Part shown: in pieces, positions 15,132 to 58,172 of the stretch | Position numbering within the stretch: position 1 is the stretch's first letter | Layout of the letters: each line of letters starts with the position of its first letter | Origin: Candidatus Liptonbacteria bacterium | GTDB taxonomy: Bacteria > Patescibacteriota > Minisyncoccia > UBA6257 > JACOXY01 | Assembly: GCA_016182095.1 (NCBI GenBank) | Contig: JACOXY010000011.1 | Coordinates: 67,794-131,793, forward strand | Direction of reading: 5' to 3' | Length of the DNA stretch: 64,000 nt | The notes under the pieces: generated by a model | Seen by the model: only the letters and a program-made list of their open reading frames with translations | Told to the model about the DNA's origin: nothing | The model's database searches: none | Program-made: the position numbers and the translations under genes

Positions 15132-16471
15132 AAACTTTGTTTTATCCCATGAAGCACAGAAGGAGCGGCAAGTCCCGCGATAACAGCATTAAACGGAATG
15201 GCAATCACATGATAGCGTGAGCCATTCGCAAACATCGGTCCATATATGAAAATGAAATAAAGCGACATCAATACCAAAATTACCGTGACTGGGTGCCTAG
15301 CAAGAACCTCCCCTCTTCTCTGCCATAGCATAGCGTAGCCAAACACAAGCATGATGGCATAGACGGCAAAATAAGCGATGTGATATAAGTGAAGGCCCAC
15401 CATAACTCCATAAACAGCCCGCGATTTTTCAAAAAAACCGAAAAACTGAGATTTATAACCGGCTCCGCGCATAGGAGAACCAAACAAACCTTTTGCCACA
15501 CTCTTCGCATGCGCATACGCGTATGCGAACGGATGTTCTGCAATAATACTAAATCCCAAATCAGTAATTGCGGCATCTCCTGTTTTCTGTGAAAGCGGAG
15601 CGGCGCTCTCGTCTCTAATAGAAAAAAGTTTTTCTTCTGCCTCTTTAGACGATAAACCATATGCTTCTTGAAGAGTCGCTCCGGCAAAACCATAGAAAAG
15701 ATTTTGGCCATTGCCGGCAAAAAGAAACGAGGTGCCATACATGGTTTCATTGCGCGCCATCCATGGGAATATTATTAAAAAGCCGGCTATGAAAAAAACA
15801 AGGGGTGCCAATGCGCTCACTGAAGTGCGCGCTGAAGATGGCGCAAAAAAACCACTCCATAAGACCAAAAAAAGGGCTATGGGGATTACATAGAGTAAAT
15901 ATATACCTACTTTGGCAACCATAAGTGCGAAGCCCAGAACAACGCCGGCCAAGGCAATAATTGCCCATGGGCGCCAATCTCGTAAGCCCCGATACTGTAA
16001 TGCTTTGTGTAGAAAATAAAGCGACAAAAAGTAAAACACAGAACCTAAGGGTTCGGTGGTCGTTCTATCTGCAAAGAGCGCGGAAACAGGGGAGGCGGCA
16101 TAAATAATACCCGCTACAATACCGGGGTATTTACCAAATAGGTCGGAGGCCAGTTTTGCCACAAACAGAACCAATGCAGATGTCGCAAGAATTTGAATAA
16201 AAAGTGGCAATCGCGGATCTGCTGAGCTAAACAGTTTATAAAATACACCCAAATAAAGTGGGTATCCCGGGACTCGAGAAATGTCGCCATTAAATGACTC
16301 GCCGCGAGAAAGTTCAATCCCGGCATTATGGTAATAGAACTCGTCAGTGCCCCTGGTTTCCCCTTTGATATAGGCAATCTCCGGATTAAGCCATACCGGC
16401 CAAAATAGTAAAAGGCGCATAGCAAGTGCGATTAGGAATAAGGCGATTAGGATTTTATTGCTACTGTTCAT
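15122..16471 (-). CDS. GT-C fold glycosyltransferase (ArnT/PMT-like, GT39/83)
   Basis: Polytopic membrane protein; first-loop TDEFYYHNAG resembles the GT-C DE motif; adjacent to a GtrA-like gene. Confidence 0.5.
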   Translation of the reverse strand: MNSSNKILIALFLIALAMRLLLFWPVWLNPEIAYIKGETRGTDEFYYHNAGIELSRGESFNGDISRVPGYPLYLGVFYKLFSSADPRLPLFIQILATSALVLFVAKLASDLFGKYPGIVAGIIYAASPVSALFADRTTTEPLGSVFYFLSLYFLHKALQYRGLRDWRPWAIIALAGVVLGFALMVAKVGIYLLYVIPIALFLVLWSGFFAPSSARTSVSALAPLVFFIAGFLIIFPWMARNETMYGTSFLFAGNGQNLFYGFAGATLQEAYGLSSKEAEEKLFSIRDESAAPLSQKTGDAAITDLGFSIIAEHPFAYAYAHAKSVAKGLFGSPMRGAGYKSQFFGFFEKSRAVYGVMVGLHLYHIAYFAVYAIMLVFGYAMLWQRRGEVLARHPVTVILVLMSLYFIFIYGPMFANGSRYHVIAIPFNAVIAGLAAPSVLHGIKQSLWK

Positions 16472-16497
16472 GCATTCAATTTAATCTTCAGAGTTCA

Positions 16498-16905
16498 TTA
16501 AATCAACTTGAAGGTATAATTCTTGTGACAGTAGAAACTGAAATTGGCAACTGCCATAAGCGCAAAGAAATTGGCAAGCATATACCAAATCCCAAAAAAT
16601 TCTACAAAAAGATACAGTAGCGCCTGATTTAAAGTTATGCTAATAAGAGCTATGCCGACAAAAATAGAAAATTGCGCCAAGATACGCCGACTTCGATCTT
16701 TAAAATTAAACATCTTATTAAGAACAAAGCTGACAATTATGCTGACAAGGTATGCGATAGCGGCTGAATAAAAATACCAAATACCGGCAAATTCTGTTAG
16801 CACATAAAGAACCACCAGATCCGCCACCACTGCAATCCCCGAAAAAAAAGCATAGCCAACATATAGACGCCAATTTTCTTTAATGATTCTTATAGCATAT
16901 TCCAT
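16498..16905 (-). CDS. GtrA-family polysaccharide-synthesis membrane protein
   Basis: 135 aa with 4 TM helices; GtrA-like YFFSGIAVVADLVVLYVLTE...FVLNKMFNF. Confidence 0.55.
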   Translation of the reverse strand: MEYAIRIIKENWRLYVGYAFFSGIAVVADLVVLYVLTEFAGIWYFYSAAIAYLVSIIVSFVLNKMFNFKDRSRRILAQFSIFVGIALISITLNQALLYLFVEFFGIWYMLANFFALMAVANFSFYCHKNYTFKLI

Positions 16906-17316
16906 AATAGAAGCGACGCCATATAAAAATTATAAGCAAATTTGTCGATATTATGAGTTAGATTTTTTTAAAAACCTCGCACGCCCAAACATGGGACCAA
17001 TGTTGCCGGCCCGCGGCAACATCCGACATCTGAACTTCCTTTTATTAGAAAATTCACCTATCCGGAAGAGACAATAATTTCATTGCATAAAATCATCGGC
17101 TTATCGGAAACGGGCATTGGTGGTTTTCGGCAACGAATAATCCGATTCTTGAAAACGACGTCTCGAGCCAGCCGTTGGTATAATATTTGCCATAATTTAT
17201 TCATTTTGCATTTTAAAATAACCTAAGTCAAGCTTAATTTAGCACGCTGATTTGCTATATAAACAAACATATGTTATTACTTAATTTAGTAGATAATAAT
17301 TTGTTACTGAGGTAAT

Positions 17317-17934
17317 ATGCTTATCGTTGAACATAGAGTCAACACAATTTCTGGATTAAAAAATGTTGCGCCCGAACATGGGGTTGAAATTGACATGCGC
17401 CACGACACGCGCAATGACCGTTTGTATTTAAGCCACGATGTTCTTGTGGGAGAAAAGCTTAACGCCACAGACGATCTTGACTCATACATGGCAAATTTTC
17501 ATCATGCGTTTGTGGTCTTCAACGTAAAAGAGGCCGGCATTGAACAGCGCTGTATTAACCTCGCGGCTAAATATGGCATTCCTAAGTCAAAATATTTTCT
17601 GCTTGATGTAGAATTTCCATACCTTTACCGCGCATCACGCAAAGAAGGGGTTCGTGAAATTGCAGTGCGCTATAGTGAAGCCGAGCCGATAGAAATGACT
17701 TTGGCGCAAAAGGGATTGGTGGACTGGGTTTGGATTGATACAAATACCACTCTTCCACTTGATAAAGCAACGGTGGAAAAACTAGGTGGCTTTAAGACAT
17801 GCCTTGTCGGTCCGGATCGCTGGAGCCGCCCCAATGACACAATCCCCTACTTACAGAAAATAAAAGAATTTGGGCTACCGCTTACCGCTATTATGGTAGG
17901 AAAAGAATATGTGCATTTGTGTGAAGGATTCTAG
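17317..17934 (+). CDS. glycerophosphodiester-phosphodiesterase-like (PI-PLC-like phosphodiesterase superfamily)
   Basis: VEHRVNT...GVEIDMRHDT.NDRLYLSHD matches the GDPD H-R/E-x-D/H-D pattern. Confidence 0.4.
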   Translation: MLIVEHRVNTISGLKNVAPEHGVEIDMRHDTRNDRLYLSHDVLVGEKLNATDDLDSYMANFHHAFVVFNVKEAGIEQRCINLAAKYGIPKSKYFLLDVEFPYLYRASRKEGVREIAVRYSEAEPIEMTLAQKGLVDWVWIDTNTTLPLDKATVEKLGGFKTCLVGPDRWSRPNDTIPYLQKIKEFGLPLTAIMVGKEYVHLCEGF

Positions 17935-17955
17935 AAAGCAGGTACAAAATTAATG

Positions 17956-17990
17956 ACCCGCGTTGCTCGAGCAATGCGGAGTTTTTTATT
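17956..17990 (+). terminator. rho-independent terminator
   Basis: Hairpin cccgcgttgctcgagcaatgcgg followed by ttttttatttt. Confidence 0.5.
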
Positions 17991-18176
17991 TTCGTGGCAA
18001 TTCTAAAAGAAATGATATGCCAAATTCTTTTAAGAAATCCATTATCATACTTTTATCCGGTCACAAACCAATTACAAACCCATTTTCATTTTTTACATTA
18101 TTTCGGTTGTAAAAAATTATTTTCCGTTTAATTTATCATTGCGCTTCTTGAAAAACTCATTTCACTATTTATAAGT

Positions 18177-20102
18177 TTAAAGGTCGTTTGTTTCTCTCCA
18201 TGCTCTGTTTTTTATAAAAACCAATGCCCAGGCCCTAGACCAGTGTATTTTGTTTTTTAAGAATAATTTTTTAATCTTTCCGGGCAGCGTATCGGAGATA
18301 GCGATTTCTTTTAACCATTTTGAAAACGGGAGGGTAAATCCCATTTTGGGACGATCCCAAATCGCTTCCGGCAAGACATCTTTCATTGCGGCAATTAGTA
18401 GTGGCTTATTTAATTTTTGGAAATCCGATCTCCCGGTACCGCTGTCAATGTTCGAGGGGTCGGACTTCCCTATATTGAGCTTAATTTCTGCTGGCAAAGA
18501 ACTTACATATTCTACCAGCAAATTATCTAAAAATGGAACTCTTATTTCAATTGAGTGGTGCATCGCCATAAAGTCGCTGTCTTTTAATAACTGGTTCTGC
18601 AGGTAGAATTTTAGTTCGAGATAAGAAAGCGCATCGGCAGGAGCGAGTTTATAAGTTTGTAAGTTTATAAGTTTGTAAGTTTCCGAGATGGAATCAATAA
18701 GGTCATTAACTTCTTTAACGCTGATATCTAAAATTTTCGCTACTTCGGCTGGTACAAATAAACCGCGGATTGCAAGATAAAACCGTAGCAAATCATTTTG
18801 GCAAAGGTAACCAAGTTTGGCATATTTATCGCTAAAAAATCCCAATGTTCGGGACATCGTAAGTCCAGCGGACTTATGGTGTCCAAAAATGGAGAGTCCA
18901 TTCTGCATTTTTCGCAACAGAGCCGCTCTTCTAAAATGATTATATCCAAAAAATATTTCATCAGCCCCCAAGCCAGACAAAACCGTTTTCAGGCCAGCTT
19001 TTTTAGCTGCCTCTGCTACAAAATAGGTATTCACCCCGTCAATAGTCGGCTCATCCATCGCTTCAAAAATGTCAGAGGTGGCATCTTCAAAATCTTGACG
19101 GGTTATTTTGTATTCATGATGATTGCTGCCGATTTGTTTAGCAATTAAATCTTGATACTTTTTTTCGGAAAACTCGGCCTCGTCAAAAGTAATTGAGAGC
19201 GTGGTAATGGGATTTTTTCGGGCTTTTGATGCCAGAATCGCCAAAACGCTGGAATCAACACCGCCAGAAAGAAACACTCCGAGCGGCGCGTCGCTTATCA
19301 TATGCAAGCGCACTGATTCTTCTAATAGTTCTCTTGTTCTCGCTATAATTTGTTCTTGTGTTTTAATGTTTTCTTGTTCTCTTGTTTTATTGAAGTAGTC
19401 CAATGGTTCATAGTATTTAACTTTCTTCACCGACAAATCTTTGCTTACTTCCAGATAATATCCAGCTTCCAGCCCACACACTCCCTCTAGAGTTGTTCGC
19501 GGCAGGGGCACGGACCCAAACAAAAGAAAACCAATCAGGGCTTGTTCATTTTTATTAGCAGTAACTAATCCGCTTTGTTTAATGGCTTTTACGGTAGAAG
19601 CAAAAACAAGATTTTCTTTATCACAATAATAATATAGTGGCTTAATGCCGTAACGATCTTTAACCAAAAAAAGTTTTCTACGGCCTTCGTCCCACAAACC
19701 AAAAGCAAACATGCCGCGGAGTTTCTTAAACGACTCCGCTCCCCACTCCACATAAGCAGCTAAAATTACTTCTGTATCTGTTTTGGTTTGAAACTGATGC
19801 CCTTTTCTTTCAAGCTCTTTTCGTAACTCAAGAAAATTATAAATTTCTCCATTGAAGGTGATGGACACCTGACGCCTGACACCTGACACCTTACACTGAT
19901 AGCGCATTGGCTGCTTACCAGCAGAAGACAGGTCAAGAATAGATAGCCGCGTATGGCTAATCGCCAAGCCATCTTCTGCACTCAAAAAAAAGCCCTCGTC
20001 ATCGGGCCCGCGCCGCTTTTGGATTGCATTCATCCTTGTTACCGCGCTCTTAAGTTCATATTCCTTCAATTCAACGCTGTAAATACCAGAAATCCCGCAC
20101 AT
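18177..20102 (-). CDS. asnB: asparagine synthase (glutamine-hydrolysing)
   Basis: MCGISGIY N-terminal nucleophile; FNGEIYNF; SGGVDSS PP-loop; carries an in-frame heptamer-repeat insertion. Confidence 0.8.
   Translation of the reverse strand: MCGISGIYSVELKEYELKSAVTRMNAIQKRRGPDDEGFFLSAEDGLAISHTRLSILDLSSAGKQPMRYQCKVSGVRRQVSITFNGEIYNFLELRKELERKGHQFQTKTDTEVILAAYVEWGAESFKKLRGMFAFGLWDEGRRKLFLVKDRYGIKPLYYYCDKENLVFASTVKAIKQSGLVTANKNEQALIGFLLFGSVPLPRTTLEGVCGLEAGYYLEVSKDLSVKKVKYYEPLDYFNKTREQENIKTQEQIIARTRELLEESVRLHMISDAPLGVFLSGGVDSSVLAILASKARKNPITTLSITFDEAEFSEKKYQDLIAKQIGSNHHEYKITRQDFEDATSDIFEAMDEPTIDGVNTYFVAEAAKKAGLKTVLSGLGADEIFFGYNHFRRAALLRKMQNGLSIFGHHKSAGLTMSRTLGFFSDKYAKLGYLCQNDLLRFYLAIRGLFVPAEVAKILDISVKEVNDLIDSISETYKLINLQTYKLAPADALSYLELKFYLQNQLLKDSDFMAMHHSIEIRVPFLDNLLVEYVSSLPAEIKLNIGKSDPSNIDSGTGRSDFQKLNKPLLIAAMKDVLPEAIWDRPKMGFTLPFSKWLKEIAISDTLPGKIKKLFLKNKIHWSRAWALVFIKNRAWRETNDL
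19864..19894. repeat. tandem heptanucleotide repeat inside asnB
   Basis: ggacacctgacgcctgacacctgacacctta encodes an extra VSGVRRQ block. Confidence 0.6.
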
Positions 20103-20133
20103 TTGTTAATTAAATCACCAAAATCAACAAATG

Positions 20134-20751
20134 TTAAGGTTGGGATGGAAGTTCATTTTTGATTTGATTTACGCCGCCATCATTGTAAACTTCCACGATT
20201 CTTATCCCAATGCGCCTCGCCTCTTCTATGTTTCCTGCAAATCTGTAAATATCAAACAGGCTGTACAGAAAAACCTGCCTGTCGGGACTCTGCTTTAAAC
20301 CAAACTCGTACAGCTGAATTGCTTTTTCATAGTAGCTAAAATTGCGGGTAGCCATAAACGCTTGCTGGTAAACACTCCCGAAACTAAAAATAACTTGGCT
20401 ATAGCTAAATCCCGTCCCGCGATCAATAATGGGCCTTCCCCATTCTTCGGCTTTCTGCACCAACTGGTCCACTAGCGCCACATTGGGTTGGGGCTTGTTT
20501 TTTTCTTGAACAATAATTTCAGAGAGAATACCCATATAATTTGAAACCAATTCTTCCTGCCCCACTGGAGAACGATATCCTAAAATACCGTCATAAACAG
20601 CATTAAACTGCGGAAGGGAAGACACCTGGGTTTGGCGGGCTTCAATATATTTTTGAGCTTTCCTTAACGGCAAAAACGAGCCGTAATATAGAAGCCACGC
20701 CAAAAAGACGGCGCTCGTAATCGAAATAATTTTTTTTAAGAGTGGGCTCAT
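20134..20751 (-). CDS. hypothetical membrane-anchored protein
   Basis: N-terminal TM helix only. Confidence 0.3.
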   Translation of the reverse strand: MSPLLKKIISITSAVFLAWLLYYGSFLPLRKAQKYIEARQTQVSSLPQFNAVYDGILGYRSPVGQEELVSNYMGILSEIIVQEKNKPQPNVALVDQLVQKAEEWGRPIIDRGTGFSYSQVIFSFGSVYQQAFMATRNFSYYEKAIQLYEFGLKQSPDRQVFLYSLFDIYRFAGNIEEARRIGIRIVEVYNDGGVNQIKNELPSQP

Positions 20752-20759
20752 ATATAAAA

Positions 20760-22226
20760 TTAGGATCTGGTTCCAAATTTGTAATTTGCAAACGCCAGAA
20801 ACAGAAAGAGATTTATATAAATAGGCAAAACATCAAAAAGAACCAGCCCCTGGATAAGATATCCTAGGGGCAGAGCAAAGATAATGGCCCTTTGAACCGT
20901 GAATTGTGTATTGGTGAGCATAGTCGCTATATTTTGTTTTTCGTTTTGATATTGATTCTTCTTAAGATTCTCGTCTTTTTGTTTTAATTTTTGCCAGCCA
21001 GTTGCAGTAAAAAATTGCGCATAAAAAACCGCAAACATAGCCACAAAACTAAGCAGACCCAATATGCCGCCAAAAATTAAATAATCAAAAAAGATGTTGT
21101 GCGCCCGGTCAAACCAAACAGTGTGAATAGGATTGTAATATTTTTCAAAAGCAATTGAAAAATTCTCCGGGCCCCATCCTAAAAGCGGACGCTCTTTCCA
21201 GGCTTCAATGGATTGTTGCCAAAGAACAAACCGCGTGCCTATGGTGGCGCCGCCAAAAGAAACGTCCAATATTCGATTTCCACCCTCTGCGCACCAAGGA
21301 GCCAAATTAATATATTGTCTGTAATAAACACCGAGGGAACCCAACGCAATAAGCGCGACTGCCGTGAGCAAAGCTGCCCTTCGCCAAAATTTTTGCGGCA
21401 TAGAAAACGCGAGATAGAAAAGCGCCGCGATAACACCGACGCCCAAACCCAAAAAGCCGCCTCTGGTTTGAGAAAAAGTTAAAAACACAAAAAAATAAAG
21501 TCCTAAAAGAATTAAAAACGGCAAATTCCACCTTTGCCAAATCTTAGAACGCCAGTCACCCGAGGCAATTAGAGAGCCGACATAAAAAAGAACGAAAATG
21601 GTATAAGTGCCTATATAAGCAGGATTACCAAGCGAACCGGCGAACCTATCGCAAAACGGGACGCTGACAAAGCCCTCAAGCTTAAAAGCTCCAGCCATCC
21701 CATAAAACATAACCAAAATTCCCGCAAAAACAGAAACTCTGAATAAATTTTTCCAGTCTTTTTCGCTTTTTAAAAACAAGAGAAGAAGAACAAAAAACAG
21801 ATAAAAGTGGAGCATTAAGAAGCTTCCTTCACCACGCTCAAAGTTGGACCAAAAAGAACCGCTGGGATTTATGCCGGTAAAGCCGGCAAGAGTAAAAATA
21901 GCGACAAAAAAGCTAACGGCAATGAAGAGCGGATTCTGGAATAAACCTGATACCTGATACCTGATACCTGATACTTTTTCCTCAAATCCCCACCCCAAAA
22001 TCGCAAACATAAGCGCCAGCTCAACTATAACTTTAAAAAAAGTGTATTTGCCGACTATAAAAGGGAAGAGGGTGCTAGGAGTAACAATAATAACCGCAAA
22101 AGGAGCCAGGTACAGTAAAATTTTGGAAATCTTAAAAAAATTTACAAGCATAGGGTTTAGGGTTTTAACTATACCCTTTTTAGAATTTATGAAGTATATC
22201 CCACTCGCCTTTTTCCGCCAAATCAA
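20760..22226 (-). CDS. O-antigen-ligase-like (Wzy_C) polytopic membrane protein
   Basis: Multiple TM helices; ERGEGSF and DRAHNIFFDYLIFGGILGLL (the WaaL-like H-N block). Confidence 0.5.
   Translation of the reverse strand: MIWRKKASGIYFINSKKGIVKTLNPMLVNFFKISKILLYLAPFAVIIVTPSTLFPFIVGKYTFFKVIVELALMFAILGWGFEEKVSGIRYQVSGLFQNPLFIAVSFFVAIFTLAGFTGINPSGSFWSNFERGEGSFLMLHFYLFFVLLLLFLKSEKDWKNLFRVSVFAGILVMFYGMAGAFKLEGFVSVPFCDRFAGSLGNPAYIGTYTIFVLFYVGSLIASGDWRSKIWQRWNLPFLILLGLYFFVFLTFSQTRGGFLGLGVGVIAALFYLAFSMPQKFWRRAALLTAVALIALGSLGVYYRQYINLAPWCAEGGNRILDVSFGGATIGTRFVLWQQSIEAWKERPLLGWGPENFSIAFEKYYNPIHTVWFDRAHNIFFDYLIFGGILGLLSFVAMFAVFYAQFFTATGWQKLKQKDENLKKNQYQNEKQNIATMLTNTQFTVQRAIIFALPLGYLIQGLVLFDVLPIYINLFLFLAFANYKFGTRS
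21945..21974. repeat. tandem heptanucleotide repeat (acctgat, 4 copies) inside the ligase-like CDS
   Basis: cctgatacctgatacctgatacctgatac encodes VSGIRYQVSG. Confidence 0.6.
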
Positions 22227-24543
22227 TCAGAACCTTCATGTCTTCTCGTAAATCTGGAAATTTAGCGAGATAATTTGCTACCAGAAGAAAATTCTCTTTA
22301 TCTTTTGCGTCTCTGAAATATGTGAGGGCTCTCCCATAATACGACAAATCAAAGGTTTGGCCTATGTCGCCCTTTAGGCTCTTCAGAACAAGTTCAACGA
22401 CCTTTTTTTCATTTCCAAAAACTGTGTACAGATAAATCATGTTATTGAAATCCGAACCAAAAAAATTCTGATATGGCGTTGCAAACTCGTCAATTTTTTT
22501 CAGGGCCGCTTTAGACTTCTCGTTTTCTCCCGCTATCGCATAAACAACCGCCGCATTCATGTAGCTCCGCGGAACTTTTGGATTCAGCGCAATCGCTTTC
22601 TCCGAGGTTTCCATCGCTTCTTTATATTTATTTTGCCCGGCAAGACTTAACGCTAAATGATAATAAACGTCTTGCCTCTTGGGAGCAAATTCCAACGCGT
22701 CGCGCATTAACTTTTCTATTTGAAGATTCAACTCAATTACTCGGGGGTCGTTCTCGTCATCGTAAGAACGGGCAATGGCTGATAGCATCTGCGCCTCTCT
22801 AATATGGAAACGGACGTCGTATGGCTCTCTCTCAACGATTTCCTGTATGGATTGAACCAATAAATCCGTAAGCTTAGAAAATTCCGGCGCCGAGAGTACA
22901 TTGGGATTATTAAAATAATCATCCATATAAATGTCATCTATGCCAAAACCGCGTATAGTCGCCTGCGCGTAGTTATAGGGAGATAAGGCTTTTTGAACTA
23001 ACTCATATGAGCGCTCAATGCTTGAGCCGCGCGGAGCAATTCTAAAAAGTTTCGCCTGGGCGTAAGGAATGACGTGAAGATAGTACAAGGACATTAAACC
23101 CAATAATCCGACCCCGGATGCCACAGATAGCAAAACAAATCTTTCATTCAAAGATGGGGGCTCGTTAGCTATGGTTTGAGTTTGCCGATCGCCATTAACA
23201 TAGGCAATAACAAACGCCAGAAGGCTAAAAAAGGCCATGTCAGAAAGTATTTGGTCAAATAAAAATAAGTTTTGAATAAAGTAGGCGCTAATTCCCGCTA
23301 TAAGTGTAAGCGCTAAAAGAAAATTTTCTTTGTAAATTCTTTTTAAAATAGCGCGAGTGAGCACAACGAAAAATCCCAAATAAACAATGAGTCCGATAAC
23401 ACCTTGCATAACCAAGAGATCAAAAATTTTGTTATGAGCGCGGTCCAACCAGGTATCGCCATAAAGCGAGAAATCTGGATCGTAATACTTCTCGTATGCG
23501 TTTAGGTAATTTTCCGGACCCCAGCCCAAAATAGGCCTTTCTTTAAAAGCTTCCCAGCTTACTTGCCAAGTTAATAAACGAAATGGGGCAGAGTCTTTAA
23601 ATGAAAAAAGGTTGGTGTTCGCGATTCTATTTAGCCCTGGAATTGCTTGCCATACTGGAGCATTTTTAGTTAGAAAAAATACCGCGGTAAAAATTACGAA
23701 AGCCACTATCAAATATCTGGCCATTTTTTTGAGTGGATAGGAAGAAAAATAAACATCTTTTTTGTAAAACGCCAAAATTGCCATAAATACTAAAAAGCCG
23801 ACCGTGGCACCCAAGATAGCCCCGCGAGTACCCGTTAAAAAAATAGTTAGCAATGACAGAATAACCAAGAAAAGGGTTAGGTAAAAACCATTCTTTTTAC
23901 CCGCTGGTATATAAAACTGAACAACACCAGCGCTTTCATTATGCTGTAAAAGACGCGAGGCCATAAAAAGACCGCCGAAAATCATAACAAATAACATATG
24001 AGTCGCGAGAAATGCCGGATTCCCAACTATGGCAGAAACTCTCTCCCCCGCGATATTGGTAGAACCAAAATACTGAAATGCCGAGTAAAGAGCGAGCATA
24101 AAGCCAGTGACTAAAAACGCGCTAAAGTAGTAGGCCCAATCTTTTTTTCCGAACGTTAGATATAAGAGCAAAAAGTAAACATAAAAATGCAGCGTCCCAA
24201 AAACACCTTCGCCGCGCTCCAAGGTTCCCCAAAAAGCGCGATAAGCATTGTCAGCAAAGAAAGAACTTACTATATAAGATAATAAAAACAAAAACAAAAA
24301 TATCGCAACCGGATTCTTTAAAAGAGTAGCGGCCCTATCCCATAAAACCCTTCTTTCGCTTTTAGAAATAAACGAGATATAGAAAAAAAACAAAGCTGCA
24401 ACTATTTCAACCGCGCTTCTAAAAAAAATAATCTTAGGCAAAGAATAGGGTAAAATAACGGCGCGGGAGAACACCAAAGCGGTAAGTGGGGTAATAAAGA
24501 GAGTTATTTTAAGCGCTAAACGCGTAAGCGAAGCCTTATACAT
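22180..24543 (-). CDS. O-antigen-ligase-like membrane protein with C-terminal TPR-like region (paralog of 20760..22226)
   Basis: ERGEGVF and DRAHNKIFDLLVMQGVIGLI; C-terminal helical repeats. Confidence 0.5.
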   Translation of the reverse strand: MYKASLTRLALKITLFITPLTALVFSRAVILPYSLPKIIFFRSAVEIVAALFFFYISFISKSERRVLWDRAATLLKNPVAIFLFLFLLSYIVSSFFADNAYRAFWGTLERGEGVFGTLHFYVYFLLLYLTFGKKDWAYYFSAFLVTGFMLALYSAFQYFGSTNIAGERVSAIVGNPAFLATHMLFVMIFGGLFMASRLLQHNESAGVVQFYIPAGKKNGFYLTLFLVILSLLTIFLTGTRGAILGATVGFLVFMAILAFYKKDVYFSSYPLKKMARYLIVAFVIFTAVFFLTKNAPVWQAIPGLNRIANTNLFSFKDSAPFRLLTWQVSWEAFKERPILGWGPENYLNAYEKYYDPDFSLYGDTWLDRAHNKIFDLLVMQGVIGLIVYLGFFVVLTRAILKRIYKENFLLALTLIAGISAYFIQNLFLFDQILSDMAFFSLLAFVIAYVNGDRQTQTIANEPPSLNERFVLLSVASGVGLLGLMSLYYLHVIPYAQAKLFRIAPRGSSIERSYELVQKALSPYNYAQATIRGFGIDDIYMDDYFNNPNVLSAPEFSKLTDLLVQSIQEIVEREPYDVRFHIREAQMLSAIARSYDDENDPRVIELNLQIEKLMRDALEFAPKRQDVYYHLALSLAGQNKYKEAMETSEKAIALNPKVPRSYMNAAVVYAIAGENEKSKAALKKIDEFATPYQNFFGSDFNNMIYLYTVFGNEKKVVELVLKSLKGDIGQTFDLSYYGRALTYFRDAKDKENFLLVANYLAKFPDLREDMKVLIDLAEKGEWDILHKF

Positions 24544-33123: not shown

Positions 33124-33363
33124 CTATGGTTTATTTTGACAAAGAACATATATCACTTTCGGAGTACGCTTTTCATGGTATTTACCACCATGAAATTCTA
33201 AGTATTGTTCTTCAACCACTCTTACATCAAGCAATTTCCATCCTGCGTTTAAATACTCGTTAGCGTGATCTTCGGAGTAAACTTCAGAAACTTGCGCCAC
33301 TCGTGAAAGTTCGGACGCGTCCATTGATACCTCAATAATTTTACTGTCTTTGAAAAGTATCAA
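33124..33363 (-). CDS. hypothetical small protein
   Basis: 79 aa followed by a terminator hairpin (ggcgggcttttgcccgc plus T-run). Confidence 0.25.
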   Translation of the reverse strand: MILFKDSKIIEVSMDASELSRVAQVSEVYSEDHANEYLNAGWKLLDVRVVEEQYLEFHGGKYHEKRTPKVIYVLCQNKP

Positions 33364-34801
33364 GCACAGAGATTACTTTGTCAATCTCCGCTTTTGTCGT
33401 GTATTTCCCGAGCGTAAACCGTACGCTTTGTTTGGCGCGTTCTTTGGAGTGTCCAAGCGCCTCTATCACATAAGAGGGTGTGAGCGCACGGGCGCGACAA
33501 GCCGACCCCGAAGAAGCCGCGATGCCTGCTAAATCAAGTTTGGTTAGAAAAAATTGGGATTCAATGCCTGGGAGATAGACATTAAGAAAATTGGGGAGCC
33601 GTTGTAACGTTCTGGCCGTTCTATCGCTTCGCTCGTTCAAGCCGTTTTTCGCTATAGCATTTAGAACGCCCAGAACGTCTGCGCCGTTGATTTCCGCATT
33701 CAGATAAATCTTTTTGATGCCCTGCCATAAATTTTCACGCAGTTTGGCGATGCGGACAGATTCCTTTTCGCGATTTTTTTGTGCGAGTTCAACAGCCTTA
33801 GCAAAGCCGACAACGAACGGAACGTTTTCGGTGCCACTGCGCAATCCAAACTCTTGGCCACCACCAGTTATGATGGGGTGTGGGGTATGGAGTATAGGGT
33901 TTAGTTTTTTTTCTGCACTATACCCTAAACCCTGGACCCCAGACCCTTGGCGCGCATATAGCGCGCCAATGCCTTTCGGTCCATAGATTTTGTGAGCCGA
34001 GATTGTCATTAAGTCCACTCCCAATTTCCCCACATCACAATCTAAATACTGCAGAGCCTGTGCCGCATCAGTATGAAACATCGGATATGTAGAAGAAAAA
34101 CTTGTTTCTAAGAAAAGTGTCTCGGAGCCTGAGCGGGCATGGTTGCCGCTTTTAGTGGCAGAGCGAGGGCGAGAGTCAAGCGGGTGAGCGATCGGCTGGG
34201 CGAGCGAAACCCCGTCTTTTCGTGAAACAAGTTTTTCTTCTCTGAACTTCCTGATTATCTCGGCAATTTGCGCAACAGGCTCTACTGTTCCAACCTCATT
34301 ATTCGCATACATAACCGAAACCAAAACAGTACGCTCGTTAAGCGCCGCTTCAAGTTTTTCCAAATTAACAATTCCGCTTTTGTCTACTGGAATATAAACA
34401 ACTTCAACCCCCTCACGTTCCAAATCCCGCGCGGTTTCCAAAACAGATTCATGCTCTATTCCCGAAACCACAATCCTGGGGTGTGGGGTGTGGGGTGTGG
34501 GGTGTGGTTTTTTGTTTCCGCTATACCCCATACCCGATACCCTATACCCTTTGGCAATTCCCCGAATTGCCAAATTATTCGCTTCTGTTGCGGATCCCGT
34601 AAAAATAATTTCATTAAAGTTAGCGCCAATCGCCTTGGCAATTGTTTCCCGCGACTCATCAAGCGCCGACATAGCTGCTTGCCCAAAAGAATGCAGAGAT
34701 CCCGTGTTCCCAAATTTCAATCCAAAATACGGCTCCATTGCTTTCTTCACAACCGGATCAATTGGAGTTGTAGAGGCGTAGTCAAGGTAGATGCGCTTCA
34801 T
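33341..34801 (-). CDS. iscS: cysteine desulfurase (IscS/NifS-like) carrying two in-frame insertions
   Basis: YLDYASTTP; SAHKIYGPKG PLP lysine; C-terminal SSGSAC. The tracked ORF carries an N-terminal extension; the likely start is MKRIYLDYAS at 34801. Confidence 0.8.
   Translation of the reverse strand: MKRIYLDYASTTPIDPVVKKAMEPYFGLKFGNTGSLHSFGQAAMSALDESRETIAKAIGANFNEIIFTGSATEANNLAIRGIAKGYRVSGMGYSGNKKPHPTPHTPHPRIVVSGIEHESVLETARDLEREGVEVVYIPVDKSGIVNLEKLEAALNERTVLVSVMYANNEVGTVEPVAQIAEIIRKFREEKLVSRKDGVSLAQPIAHPLDSRPRSATKSGNHARSGSETLFLETSFSSTYPMFHTDAAQALQYLDCDVGKLGVDLMTISAHKIYGPKGIGALYARQGSGVQGLGYSAEKKLNPILHTPHPIITGGGQEFGLRSGTENVPFVVGFAKAVELAQKNREKESVRIAKLRENLWQGIKKIYLNAEINGADVLGVLNAIAKNGLNERSDRTARTLQRLPNFLNVYLPGIESQFFLTKLDLAGIAASSGSACRARALTPSYVIEALGHSKERAKQSVRFTLGKYTTKAEIDKVISVLDTFQRQ
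33872..33950. repeat. G-rich insertion element #1, in-frame in iscS
   Basis: ggggtgtggggtatggagtatagggtttag...ctataccctaaaccctggaccccagaccc encodes GSGVQGLGYSAEKKLNPILHTPHP between the conserved ALYARQ and IITGGGQE. Confidence 0.6.
34476..34553. repeat. G-rich insertion element #2, in-frame in iscS
   Basis: (ggggtgt)x4 then a T-loop then ataccccatacccgataccctataccc; encodes VSGMGYSGNKKPHPTPHTPHP. Confidence 0.6.
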
Positions 34802-34862
34802 AAAATGAAGCGTCATATGTCCGGTATCAAGTATCACGTAAATGGAATTTTTATTTTCCCCA

Positions 34863-34896
34863 AACACATGACACATAACACATGACACATGACACT
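34863..34896. repeat. tandem heptamer (acacatg) repeat in the iscS upstream intergenic region
   Basis: acacatgacacataacacatgacacatgacac, flanked by caaacac and gtgtttg. Confidence 0.5.
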
Positions 34897-35464
34897 AAAA
34901 TAGTGTTTGCGGAAAAATAAATTCACTAAAAGCAAGTTTAACCTCCAGGCGGTTGCCGGTGTTCCTCTCGGGAACAATTAGGTGTCCGCGGCTTTTCGCC
35001 AATTCATATAAATCTTTAGTAATTTTCACATCATTAAGGCAGTACTCTTCCAGCTCTTTCCACCTGCCCTCTTTGTAAAATTTAATAGCTTCAAGTCCGT
35101 GGTTTGTTTTCCCAACCCCAAGATTCGCCTGCGCCAGAAGATCAAGCCCGATTCTTTGGCCGGCACTGGTTTCAATTTCATCCAAAAGATCAAGCCGGTT
35201 AATTTTCCATAGATCAAATTTAAAATGCTTAGCAAGCACCGGTATGTCAAAACGATTAATACTAAAGCCGATTATAAGGCCGGCGTTCTTCAGAAATGTT
35301 TCGAGGTTGGCCAGTTCGGTGTCTTTAAATGCCAAATACCTGCCCTCGTTATAAGAATAAACACCAACCAGCGAGACCTCTAATCTATCAATCCGATCGC
35401 GCCCCCCAACATCCGCGAAAGAATTTTTAGTTTCAATGTCTAAAACGACTGTATCAGGTATCAT
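34895..35464 (-). CDS. DEDD-type 3'-5' exonuclease-like (RNase H-like fold) protein
   Basis: N-terminal VLDIET... (DxE) exonuclease motif. Confidence 0.35.
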   Translation of the reverse strand: MIPDTVVLDIETKNSFADVGGRDRIDRLEVSLVGVYSYNEGRYLAFKDTELANLETFLKNAGLIIGFSINRFDIPVLAKHFKFDLWKINRLDLLDEIETSAGQRIGLDLLAQANLGVGKTNHGLEAIKFYKEGRWKELEEYCLNDVKITKDLYELAKSRGHLIVPERNTGNRLEVKLAFSEFIFPQTLF

Positions 35465-35467
35465 AAT

Positions 35468-35509
35468 AACTCCACGAATTTACGAATCTTGCGTATATAC
35501 GAATTTACA
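35468..35509. repeat. left inverted repeat flanking the GxxExxY gene
   Basis: aactccacgaatttacgaatcttgcgtatatacgaatttaca. Confidence 0.6.
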
Positions 35510-44159: not shown

Positions 44160-44232
44160 AACTCCACGAATTTACGAATCTAGCTAATATACGAATTTAT
44201 CCGACGTGAACCAATAGATTCGTATATACGCT
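44160..44232. repeat. solo palindromic copy of the GxxExxY-flanking repeat
   Basis: aactccacgaatttacgaatctagctaatatacgaattta...agattcgtatatacg. Confidence 0.55.
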
Positions 44233-44896: not shown

Positions 44897-44949
44897 TAAT
44901 ATCAATAAACATAAATAAAAAATAAAAGATTAAAAATCAAAAATTAAGA

Positions 44950-44968
44950 TTGTTCGCCAAAGGCGAAC
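44950..44968 (+). promoter_or_regulatory. palindromic candidate operator (SOS box-like) upstream of recA
   Basis: tGTTCGCCaaaGGCGAACt, about 45 nt upstream of the recA ATG. Confidence 0.35.
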
Positions 44969-45014
44969 TCCATAATTTTAATCTTTGATATTTAATTTTT
45001 AATTTAGCTGTACT

Positions 45015-57576: not shown

Positions 57577-58015
57577 GGAAAAGGCAAGCTAGAGGAAGCC
57601 GCCTCGCTTCGCTCGGCGGCCATTTCGTATTGAATTTTGGGGGCAAAAACGAATTGGCGGTTTCGTTTGGGGGACGGAAAAATTTTTAATCAATTTTAGT
57701 TCAACAAAACTATGCGTTATGTAATCTATGCTCGCAAATCAACGGAAGATGACGACAGGCAAGTGCTTTCGATTGAAGCTCAACTCGTTGAGCTTTCTGA
57801 ATTTGCCGCCAAAGAAAAACTTGAAATTGTCGCCTCTTTTCAAGAGGCAAAAACTGCAAAAGAACCCGAAGAAAAACATCGGCGCGAACCATATTTTGCG
57901 AAACCGCCAATTCGTTTTTGCCCCCAAAATTCAATACGAAATGGCCGCCGAGCGAAGCGAGGCGGCTTCGAAATGGCCGCCGAGCGAAGCGAGGCGGCTT
58001 CCTCTAGCTTGCGTT
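57577..58015. mobile_element. second TIR-bounded remnant holding a truncated serine-recombinase N-terminus
   Basis: TIRs gaggaagccgcctcgcttcgctcggcggccatttcgtattgaattttgggggcaaaaacgaattggcggtttcg with its reverse complement at 57903-58015 (32-bp tandem duplication on the right). The internal ORF opens MRYVIYARKSTEDDDRQVLSIEAQ (resolvase-like) and is cut after about 55 aa. Confidence 0.45.
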
Positions 58016-58026
58016 TTTCTAAAGTG

Positions 58027-58098
58027 TCCCCTCGGAGGGAATCGAACCCCCATTAAAAGGTTAGAAACCTTCCGTTCTATCCGTTGAACTACGAGGGG
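58027..58098 (-). tRNA. second tRNA-Arg (UCU) copy
   Basis: Acceptor CCCCTCG/CGAGGGG; anticodon stem GAAGG/CCTTT with loop TTTCTAA; T arm GGGGG-TTCGATT-CCCTC. Confidence 0.5.
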
Positions 58099-58172
58099 TG
58101 GTCGGAGCGCCGAGAATCGAACTCGGACCTTATGCTCCCAAAGCATATATACTACCACTATACTACGCTCCG
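58099..58172 (-). tRNA. tRNA-Pro (UGG) with encoded CCA
   Basis: Acceptor CGGAGCG/CGCTCCG; anticodon stem TATGC/GCATA with loop TTTGGGA; ends ACCA; abuts tRNA-Arg with no spacer. Confidence 0.6.

Follow-up and report, generated by a model that had tools for sequence, protein, structure and literature searches.

Heptanucleotide repeats have long been noticed in bacteria, where they have gone unexplained and have been regarded as belonging to the intergenic DNA of large genomes. The short tandemly repeated repetitive (STRR) sequences of cyanobacteria are said to have been reported by Mazel et al. in 1990. According to the account of Mrazek (2007) that is given in PMC4679880, no class of longer simple sequence repeats (SSRs) is more abundant in many bacterial genomes than the heptanucleotides, and 7 nt has been proposed to be the stretch that the polymerase contacts during slippage. 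The G-rich heptamers of Xanthomonas and Nostoc show a preference for arrays of four units and are depleted from coding DNA (Rehm et al. 2015, PMC4692102). TAACTGA repeats are found mainly upstream of start codons, with intragenic copies at protein termini (MacGregor 2015, PMC4679880), and only their open orientation encodes a peptide, LSVISYQ (PMC4679880). Here, we characterize two heptanucleotide tracts that lie inside genes, in a 64,000-nt stretch of the genome of Candidatus Liptonbacteria bacterium (contig JACOXY010000011.1; hereafter, the window), which belongs to the Parcubacteria, a lineage of the candidate phyla radiation (CPR). One tract is in asnB and the other is in an O-antigen-ligase-like gene. 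Both are probably heptanucleotide SSR arrays of the kind represented by STRR sequences, long-SSR heptamers, and TAACTGA repeats, tolerated in frame within permissive loops. The host genes and their arrays, as found among open reading frames (ORFs) and by Tandem Repeats Finder (TRF), are listed below; all coordinates are positions in the window, and L-numbers denote comparison loci.

18177..20102, minus strand: AsnB-family glutamine amidotransferase gene, an ORF of 641 aa that bears the GTGTCAG array
19864..19896, minus strand: imperfect heptanucleotide array in asnB, (GTGTCAG)x4.7 (TRF: period 7, 88% matches)
20760..22151, minus strand: Wzy_C (PF04932) O-antigen-ligase-family gene that bears the GTATCAG array; the mechanically called ORF reaches a TTG at 22226
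21945..21974, minus strand: perfect heptanucleotide array in the Wzy_C gene, (GTATCAG)x4.3 (TRF: period 7, 100% matches)

Sequence and TRF both place the tracts where a preliminary description of this DNA had put them, in frame and drawn from one unit family; GTGTCAG and GTATCAG are one base apart and can be written together as GTRTCAG. On the coding strand, the units of the asnB array are GTGTAAG, GTGTCAG, GTGTCAG, GCGTCAG, and GTGTC. They encode CKVSGVRRQVS directly before ITFNGEIYN, in the loop after QPM. When the sequence was aligned to the solved AsnB-family structures 1ct9 and 7ylz, this site corresponded to a turn joining two conserved segments, and the array amounted to 4-6 added residues between QP[ML] and NGEIYN, which bears out the earlier suggestion that the tract is extra relative to distant homologs. 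An AlphaFold2 model of AsnB made from a 29-sequence alignment was too poor for loop placement, with a mean predicted local distance difference test (pLDDT) score of 49. In the ligase-like gene, whose product from the ATG at 22151 is 463 aa long and matches the public protein P0241, the array is located at around codon 60 of 463, close to the 5' end, and encodes VSGIRYQVSG in a short loop flanked by two hydrophobic segments. Both genes are part of a cell-envelope glycan cluster (Wzy_C x2, GtrA, and PMT_2). An independent Logan assembly (L001) was 100% identical to window positions 15177-23102, and the arrays are thus not the product of a single assembler.

The preliminary description had also drawn attention to the similar peptides encoded in two unrelated genes. 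The underlying units do belong to one family, but the likeness of the peptides is a matter of arithmetic. Because 7 and 3 share no factor, any in-frame array of a given 7-nt unit yields one cyclic 7-residue peptide. A 7-nt unit passes through all three frames over 21 nt, and the occurrence of similar peptides in the two genes is therefore not independent evidence; it speaks neither for selection nor for a common function. Furthermore, only one orientation of such an array can survive in a gene, because the opposite strand has TGA in every frame.

The closest relative that we found (GCA_964616565.1, L206) carries both arrays at equivalent sites and with equal copy number. Between this genome and the window, identity is 78% (protein) and 75.6% (DNA) for the ligase and 70% (protein) and 72.9% (DNA) for AsnB; at third codon positions, it is ~56% for each gene. 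The asnB arrays have ~5 AGGTGTC units in both genomes. They are equal in length, have their own single-unit substitutions, and are identical at 33/39 nt. The ligase array is (GTATCAA)x4.3 in L206 versus (GTATCAG)x4.3 in the window, with only 4 differences in 33 nt, one per unit and all at the equivalent unit position. This pattern, in which all four units changed in parallel without any other change, indicates concerted evolution. Overall, the nucleotide identity of the arrays was 85-88%, compared to a gene average of 73-76%.

These comparisons bear on the proposal, made in the preliminary description, that the tracts are candidate contingency loci. On this reading, slipped-strand change by one unit would switch the ligase-like gene, and perhaps asnB, off and on and thereby vary the cell surface. 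It follows directly from the sequence that the gain or loss of one unit shifts the frame. The ligase array is perfect and close to the start of its gene, and both genes are in a surface-glycan cluster, where contingency genes are typically found. Heptanucleotide SSRs also figure in the Haemophilus SSR literature (PMC2651432). However, the tracts have only ~4 units, and the one in asnB is imperfect. Copy number and frame were both identical in L206 despite the divergence of the genes, and an unchanged copy number over that distance speaks against a hypervariable switch. In many lineages, the orthologous arrays were all in frame, with frameshifts in 0/83 AsnB loci; the two assemblies of the window were identical; and arrays of this kind are present both within a cysteine desulfurase gene and between genes. 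A scan of metagenome contigs anchored on both ligase flanks, with a variable gap between them, matched 0 other contigs, so no copy numbers were compared in this way. We therefore consider phase variation very unlikely. To judge from their sequences, the arrays look stably inherited and do not look like an on/off switch.

The two tracts belong to a general excess of heptamer arrays. A degenerate two-unit pattern, ACCTGAYACCTGAY, had 10 matches in the window when up to 2 mismatches were allowed, compared to 0.53 expected, and 0/100 shuffles reached 10. There were 5 period-7 arrays in the window with a score of at least 12, whereas simulated sequences (second-order Markov, 100 runs) averaged 0.04 and never had more than 1. 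For the other periods from 4 to 12, the window had 0-1 arrays each. To place these counts in context, we used a CPR comparison set made up of syntenic loci (L002, L003, and L204-L209) together with 80 metagenome AsnB loci. Period 7 predominated in this set as well; its arrays numbered 5 in the 12.6 kb of L002 and 6 in the 7.9 kb of L003. The 33 closest CPR AsnB loci contained 25 arrays of period 7 and 12 of period 8, the second commonest tandem period in CPR loci, with 0-1 arrays for other periods. Most of the CPR arrays (53/60) were inside ORFs of at least 120 aa. Their units were highly diverse: the 25 commonest units accounted for 41/54 arrays, and no unit occurred more than 4 times. An Rfam scan returned tRNAs only, with no match to any array, and a literature search found no paper on heptamer repeats in CPR.

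Outside the CPR, when genomes representing one species each were scanned for (GTRTCAG)3, at least 120 contigs matched (the other-phyla set, L004-L123), including Acidobacteriota, Planctomycetota, Chloroflexota, Bacteroidota, Desulfobacterota, and Cyanobacteria. Figures for this set refer to the matches listed. Among these, at least 236 arrays had period 7, compared to no more than 7 for every other period. Array lengths were bimodal, with a mode at 24-33 nt (~4 units) both in the CPR and in the contigs from other phyla. The (GTRTCAG)n arrays of other phyla were mostly intergenic or at gene ends, and 17% of the units in arrays neighbouring them were one mismatch away, compared to 1.5% expected. 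The CPR arrays differ from those of other phyla in location and not in kind.

Several further features of the other-phyla contigs were seen. An (AGGTNTC)n array was often followed, 10-100 nt on, by (GANACCT)n, with the central base being noncomplementary (e.g., L013, L038, L062, and L085). Some genomes (L009, L019, and L104) had 7-10 heptamer arrays in a stretch of 8 kb. We also considered whether GTRTCAG is a specially favoured, universal unit, but without scans for control units this is inseparable from the general abundance of heptamer SSRs, and the idea was set aside.

In the AsnB orthologs, arrays recur at the same place. The loop between QP[ML] and FNGEIYN has 8 residues in many orthologs, while in at least 10 lineages it has 12-22 residues and period-7 DNA. 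The units found there include GTGTCAG, CTATACC, AAATATC, AAATTGA, AAAATTA, AAAGTCA, and GCAAATG. The asnB unit GTGTCAG is three transitions apart from the ATATCAA of L133/L134; treating the orthologous arrays as homologous sequence was rejected on the grounds that their common descent was not established. The ligase loop likewise holds arrays in many orthologs. In L132, (ATCAGTT)n is located inside the gene upstream of AsnB, which is the position of the ligase ortholog. In L003, a Logan contig, the contig end falls exactly in a (CTCAAAT)x4 array of the ligase loop (positions 1-28), which suggests that heptamer arrays can break short-read assemblies. AsnB in the window has two more variable loops with arrays.

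18646..18682, minus strand: in-frame octanucleotide array in asnB, (ACTTAYAA)x4.6, encoding ETYKLINLQTYKL, in the second variable loop (TRF)
19359..19392, minus strand: degenerate in-frame period-8 array in asnB, 4.2 copies with 80% matches, in the third variable loop (TRF)

Depending on lineage, the second loop holds arrays of 7-, 8-, or 9-nt units or palindromic elements. Some of these arrays have identical units in pairs of loci, namely window/L131, L002/L124, and L128/L134; the L131 unit, ACTTACAA, is at the site equivalent to the window octanucleotide array. In-frame palindromic elements were observed in AsnB of L003, L125, L126, L135, L136, and L206, in those loops where other orthologs have heptamer arrays. 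Their peptides are typically GKSDLPNI...RSDFQ and RTSDVP, as exemplified by GGGAAGTCCGACCTCCC...GGAGGTCGGACTTCC. Residues ~545-563 of AsnB in the window (~18410-18470, KSDPSNIDSGTGRSDFQK) form a loop of the type that bears such elements in orthologs, and no inverted repeat was detected in this copy at the settings used.

Heptamer units also build hairpins in and around the cysteine desulfurase gene iscS, which lies further along the window.

33341-34801, minus strand: cysteine desulfurase gene (iscS), containing hairpin pairs of heptamer arrays
34864..34895, minus strand: intergenic array, (ACACATG)x4.6 on the plus strand and GTGTCAT on the iscS sense strand, forming one hairpin arm (TRF)
34819..34840, minus strand: degenerate partner arm of the iscS-upstream hairpin (inverted repeat)
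34477..34550, minus strand: in-frame hairpin pair in the cysteine desulfurase gene, encoding GYRVSGMGYSGNKKPHPTPHTPHP (TRF and inverted repeat)
33873..33947, minus strand: more degenerate hairpin copy in the cysteine desulfurase gene, encoding GSGVQGLGYSAEKKLNPILHTPHP (TRF and inverted repeat)

The preliminary description had singled out the tract upstream of iscS as a relative of the other two, and it is indeed related in kind. This array sits between the stop of an RNase_H_2-like gene and the start of iscS. On the sense strand, the RNA of the iscS-upstream hairpin folds at -35.9 kcal/mol (z -6.6), versus -16.1 on the other strand. The sense-strand hairpin includes an upstream in-frame ATG at 34817, and the annotated iscS start at 34801 is outside it. 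The same intergenic region contained a stable hairpin in 5/5 genomes (window 34802-34897; L204 9887-10000; L207, L208, and L209). In 4/5 of these, the arms were periodic at 7-8 nt, with unrelated units.

Within iscS itself, the hairpin at 34477-34550 reads on the plus strand as (TGGGGTG)x4.4, a T-rich loop, and (CTATACC)x4.3. The first arm has four G4 tracts, and the plus strand folds at -57.5 kcal/mol (z -8.0), versus -29.9 for the mRNA strand. The two iscS copies are colinear over ~76 nt, a span that takes in the loop along with a few bases on the flanks, with 66/102 columns invariant in a two-sequence alignment. Orthologous cysteine desulfurases from many CPR lineages have insertions at each of the two sites, and the inserted peptides include GYRVxGLGYS..KK..LNPKPYTLNP. 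Hairpins at the two sites were near-identical in L205. The site-2 hairpin was present in the window, L205, L207, L208, and L209, with only a weak one in L204. A unit family, GGGTWTA/TAWACCC, is common to the iscS hairpins of the window, L207, and L209, while the L208 unit is AT-rich. Furthermore, AsnB of L002 contains a single array of the CCCTATA-type unit, which makes up an arm of the iscS hairpin in the window, L207, and L209. As a possible sign of an RNA intermediate, we considered the G:U strand asymmetry that is strong at two window hairpins, but the favoured strand varies by locus and genome, and this candidate was dropped. The cysteine desulfurase gene has one more in-frame insertion, its third (34091-34241), which is 151 nt long and has perfect 18-nt terminal inverted repeats, AGAAGAAAAACTTGTTTC and GAAACAAGTTTTTCTTCT, at its ends; this element is of a different class from the heptamer arrays.

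An alternative is that the arrays are dispersed selfish mini-elements, with preformed arrays of ~30 nt or hairpins of ~76 nt being copied by a process resembling transposition or by ectopic conversion and kept only where they fall in frame. Such copying is consistent with the colinearity of the iscS pair, with the near-identical hairpins of L205, and with the sharing of CCCTATA-type units between iscS and AsnB. It is also consistent with the GTRTCAG family being in two window genes, with net insert sizes of 21-33 nt that equal typical array lengths, and with the surplus of one-mismatch neighbours of (GTRTCAG)n in other phyla. Against this, the units of CPR arrays are very diverse, and the single arrays showed neither terminal repeats nor target duplications, nor was an enzyme seen in association with them. 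In orthologous arrays, the unit changes in every copy but site and length stay constant, which fits homogenisation in situ. In one case, a unit matches the local native sequence: the array-free L129 has AAAAATT where L145 has (AAAATTA)n. Copying of preformed elements thus strikes us as unlikely. The option of selfish in-frame insertion, offered in the preliminary description, is supported only in part; the arrays behave like SSRs evolving in concert in situ and unlike a mobile element with fixed ends.

Another alternative is that the arrays are functional nucleic acid elements on which selection acts, whether as structures in RNA or DNA or as sites that bind proteins; examples would be G-quadruplexes, intercistronic hairpins, and sites for translational regulators. 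Paired arrays do fold strongly, as the energies at 34477-34550 and upstream of iscS attest. The iscS-upstream hairpin is found in five genomes despite unrelated units, and the site-2 hairpin recurs in as many. The G4 tracts of (TGGGGTG)x4.4 resemble those of G-quadruplex-forming heptamers (PMC4692102), and array DNA is more conserved than the host gene. In contrast, neither of the two focal arrays has a partner arm or a significant fold: an inverted-repeat search found no partner for either, the asnB array has an RNA fold z of ~0, and the ligase array has a sense-strand z of only -2.4, coming from its flanks. The strand favoured by the hairpins is inconsistent between loci and genomes, the site-2 hairpin of L204 is weak, and the Rfam scan was negative for the arrays. 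In addition, palindromes can be maintained by template-switch repair in the absence of selection. On balance, a selected function of this type seems highly improbable for the arrays.

Elsewhere in the window, other repeats were recorded, one of them a further hairpin with period-7 arms.

44913..45005, no strand assigned: AT-rich intergenic hairpin with period-7 arms (AAATAAA / TTTTAAT); over 44905-45006, fold -26.7 kcal/mol, z -6.5

A small GC hairpin, GTTCGCCAAAGGCGAAC, is nested in the loop of this hairpin. Arrays with ~4 copies of the unit ACGAATTT occur at 35474-35508 and 44166-44199, and the second of them is within an inverted repeat (44167-44230). The ACGAA unit family to which these two arrays belong also forms the iscS-upstream hairpin of L204. 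Finally, positions 57937-58000 are a perfect tandem duplication of a GC-rich 32-nt unit, CGAAATGGCCGCCGAGCGAAGCGAGGCGGCTT x2, which adjoins two tRNA genes (58027-58172).

Returning to our favored explanation, that of SSR arrays tolerated in frame, the arrays would arise and stay homogeneous through dynamics at the level of DNA, with replication or repair slippage and intra-array conversion as candidate processes. In compact CPR genomes, most arrays would land in genes. Those that survive would be expected to satisfy three conditions: the strand that is coding must be free of stops, the total length must be a multiple of three, and the site must be a structurally permissive loop. Surviving arrays would then be inherited as additional loop residues, and the encoded peptide would be neutral. 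Subsequent change inside an ORF would be confined to three-unit (21-nt) steps or to length-neutral conversion. Because only such changes would be viable, a stable copy number could go together with turnover of the unit.

Not all of the evidence sits easily with this explanation. Relative to the 8-aa baseline, net gains in the AsnB loop range from 12 to 42 nt and are not always multiples of 21, so integer-unit slippage from the present baseline cannot explain all cases. Stepwise growth from one to four units in an ORF would pass through frameshifted intermediates, which means that the birth of an array needs a multi-unit event or a compensating indel; neither was observed. The GTRTCAG family is found in two genes that are 2 kb apart, and the likeness of the two iscS hairpin copies, loop included, hints at copying between loci. 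The elevated identity of the arrays over the gene average could reflect constraint rather than homogenisation, and the four-unit mode is found in noncoding DNA as well. The gains that are not multiples of 21, the frameshift problem, the noncoding four-unit mode, and the conservation of the arrays together leave room for a burst-like or dedicated process or for inter-locus copying. For example, a nonclassical or dedicated process might lay down about four 7-nt units in a single event, across many phyla. Such a process might also build or maintain the inverted arms and, in the CPR, be a principal source of new protein loops, with orthologous loops being rewritten again and again by unit turnover at constant length. 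Addition of three units (21 nt) would preserve the frame, though the loop gains are not always multiples of 21. We view a process of this sort as improbable.

The abundant, intragenic, and in-frame CPR arrays are a concrete source, at the level of DNA, for the many lineage-specific insertions in CPR proteins. Hundreds of orthologous arrays offer a tractable comparative system in which to seek the reasons for a 7-nt step and for a preferred size of four units. They also call for caution in annotation. Tracts of this kind in CPR genes do not on their own amount to evidence of phase variation, and repeat peptides that are alike in unrelated proteins need not share a function.

Among described systems, contingency SSRs of Haemophilus and Neisseria resemble the tracts in that a tandem repeat with a unit length indivisible by three lies within the ORF of a surface-glycan gene and, for the ligase, near its 5' end. 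Unlike contingency SSRs, the tracts have ~4 units, that in asnB is imperfect, and copy number is kept across species. A contingency SSR would be expected to have a long perfect tract, and with it a high rate of slippage; here, there are 4.3 units in the ligase and an imperfect 4.7 in asnB. Nor are the arrays restricted to dispensable genes for the surface or for host interaction: although asnB and the ligase belong to a glycan cluster, others are inside the cysteine desulfurase gene or between genes.

Rickettsia palindromic elements (RPEs) are short nonautonomous repeats that conserved proteins tolerate as in-frame additions to their surface loops, while repetitive extragenic palindromic (REP) sequences and bacterial interspersed mosaic elements (BIMEs) are intergenic hairpins of operons. 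The iscS hairpin pairs and the intergenic hairpins are comparable to RPE and REP. The window arrays are read through in frame within conserved proteins, as RPEs are. Unlike RPEs and miniature inverted-repeat transposable elements (MITEs), single arrays are nonpalindromic, have no consensus beyond the unit, and have no flanks in common. The hairpin arms also depart from RPE and REP in that they consist of 7-nt tandem units, and these units vary from genome to genome. The defined ends and shared consensus of mobile palindromes were found only in part, and only in the two iscS hairpin copies.

The TAACTGA repeats of Beggiatoaceae, Cyanobacteria, and Bacteroidetes (PMC4679880) are close to the window arrays. 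Their open-strand unit, TTATCAG, is one base apart from GTATCAG, and the cyclic 7-mers are LSVISYQ from TAACTGA repeats (PMC4679880) and VSGIRYQ here. TAACTGA repeats have two to six copies and stops in all three forward frames, such that copies in ORFs are in reverse only (PMC4679880). Membership of the TAACTGA family would call for exactly that unit, with related heptamers seldom forming direct repeats; our arrays instead have TACCTGA and CACCTGA, one and two mismatches away, and many unrelated units coexist. In contrast to TAACTGA repeats, which have been proposed as regulator binding sites (PMC4679880), our arrays are internal to conserved enzymes, and no unit dominates the genome. The GGGNATC and GGGGAYT G-quadruplex heptamers (PMC4692102) are similar to the window (TGGGGTG)x4.4 array with its four G4 tracts. 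These heptamers are under-represented in coding DNA and occur near ORF ends (PMC4692102), unlike the GTRTCAG arrays, which lack G-tracts.

The closest correspondence is with the long-SSR heptamers and STRR sequences. As with our arrays, these repeats are reported to consist of head-to-tail units of 7 nt in many short arrays per genome, with varied units and an excess of period 7. The preferred size of ~four units that we observed (mode 24-33 nt) also accords with the four-unit preference reported in PMC4692102. Heptamer SSRs and STRR sequences are reported from the large genomes of Nostoc, Burkholderia, Xanthomonas, and actinobacteria, and mainly from noncoding DNA, whereas the host here is a CPR bacterium with a small genome. 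The predominantly intergenic location of heptamer SSRs does not extend to the CPR, where 53/60 arrays are in ORFs, in frame and in orthologous loops. What is new, then, is that CPR arrays are mostly intragenic and in frame, that they occupy orthologous sites, and that they sometimes form in-frame hairpin pairs, as in iscS.

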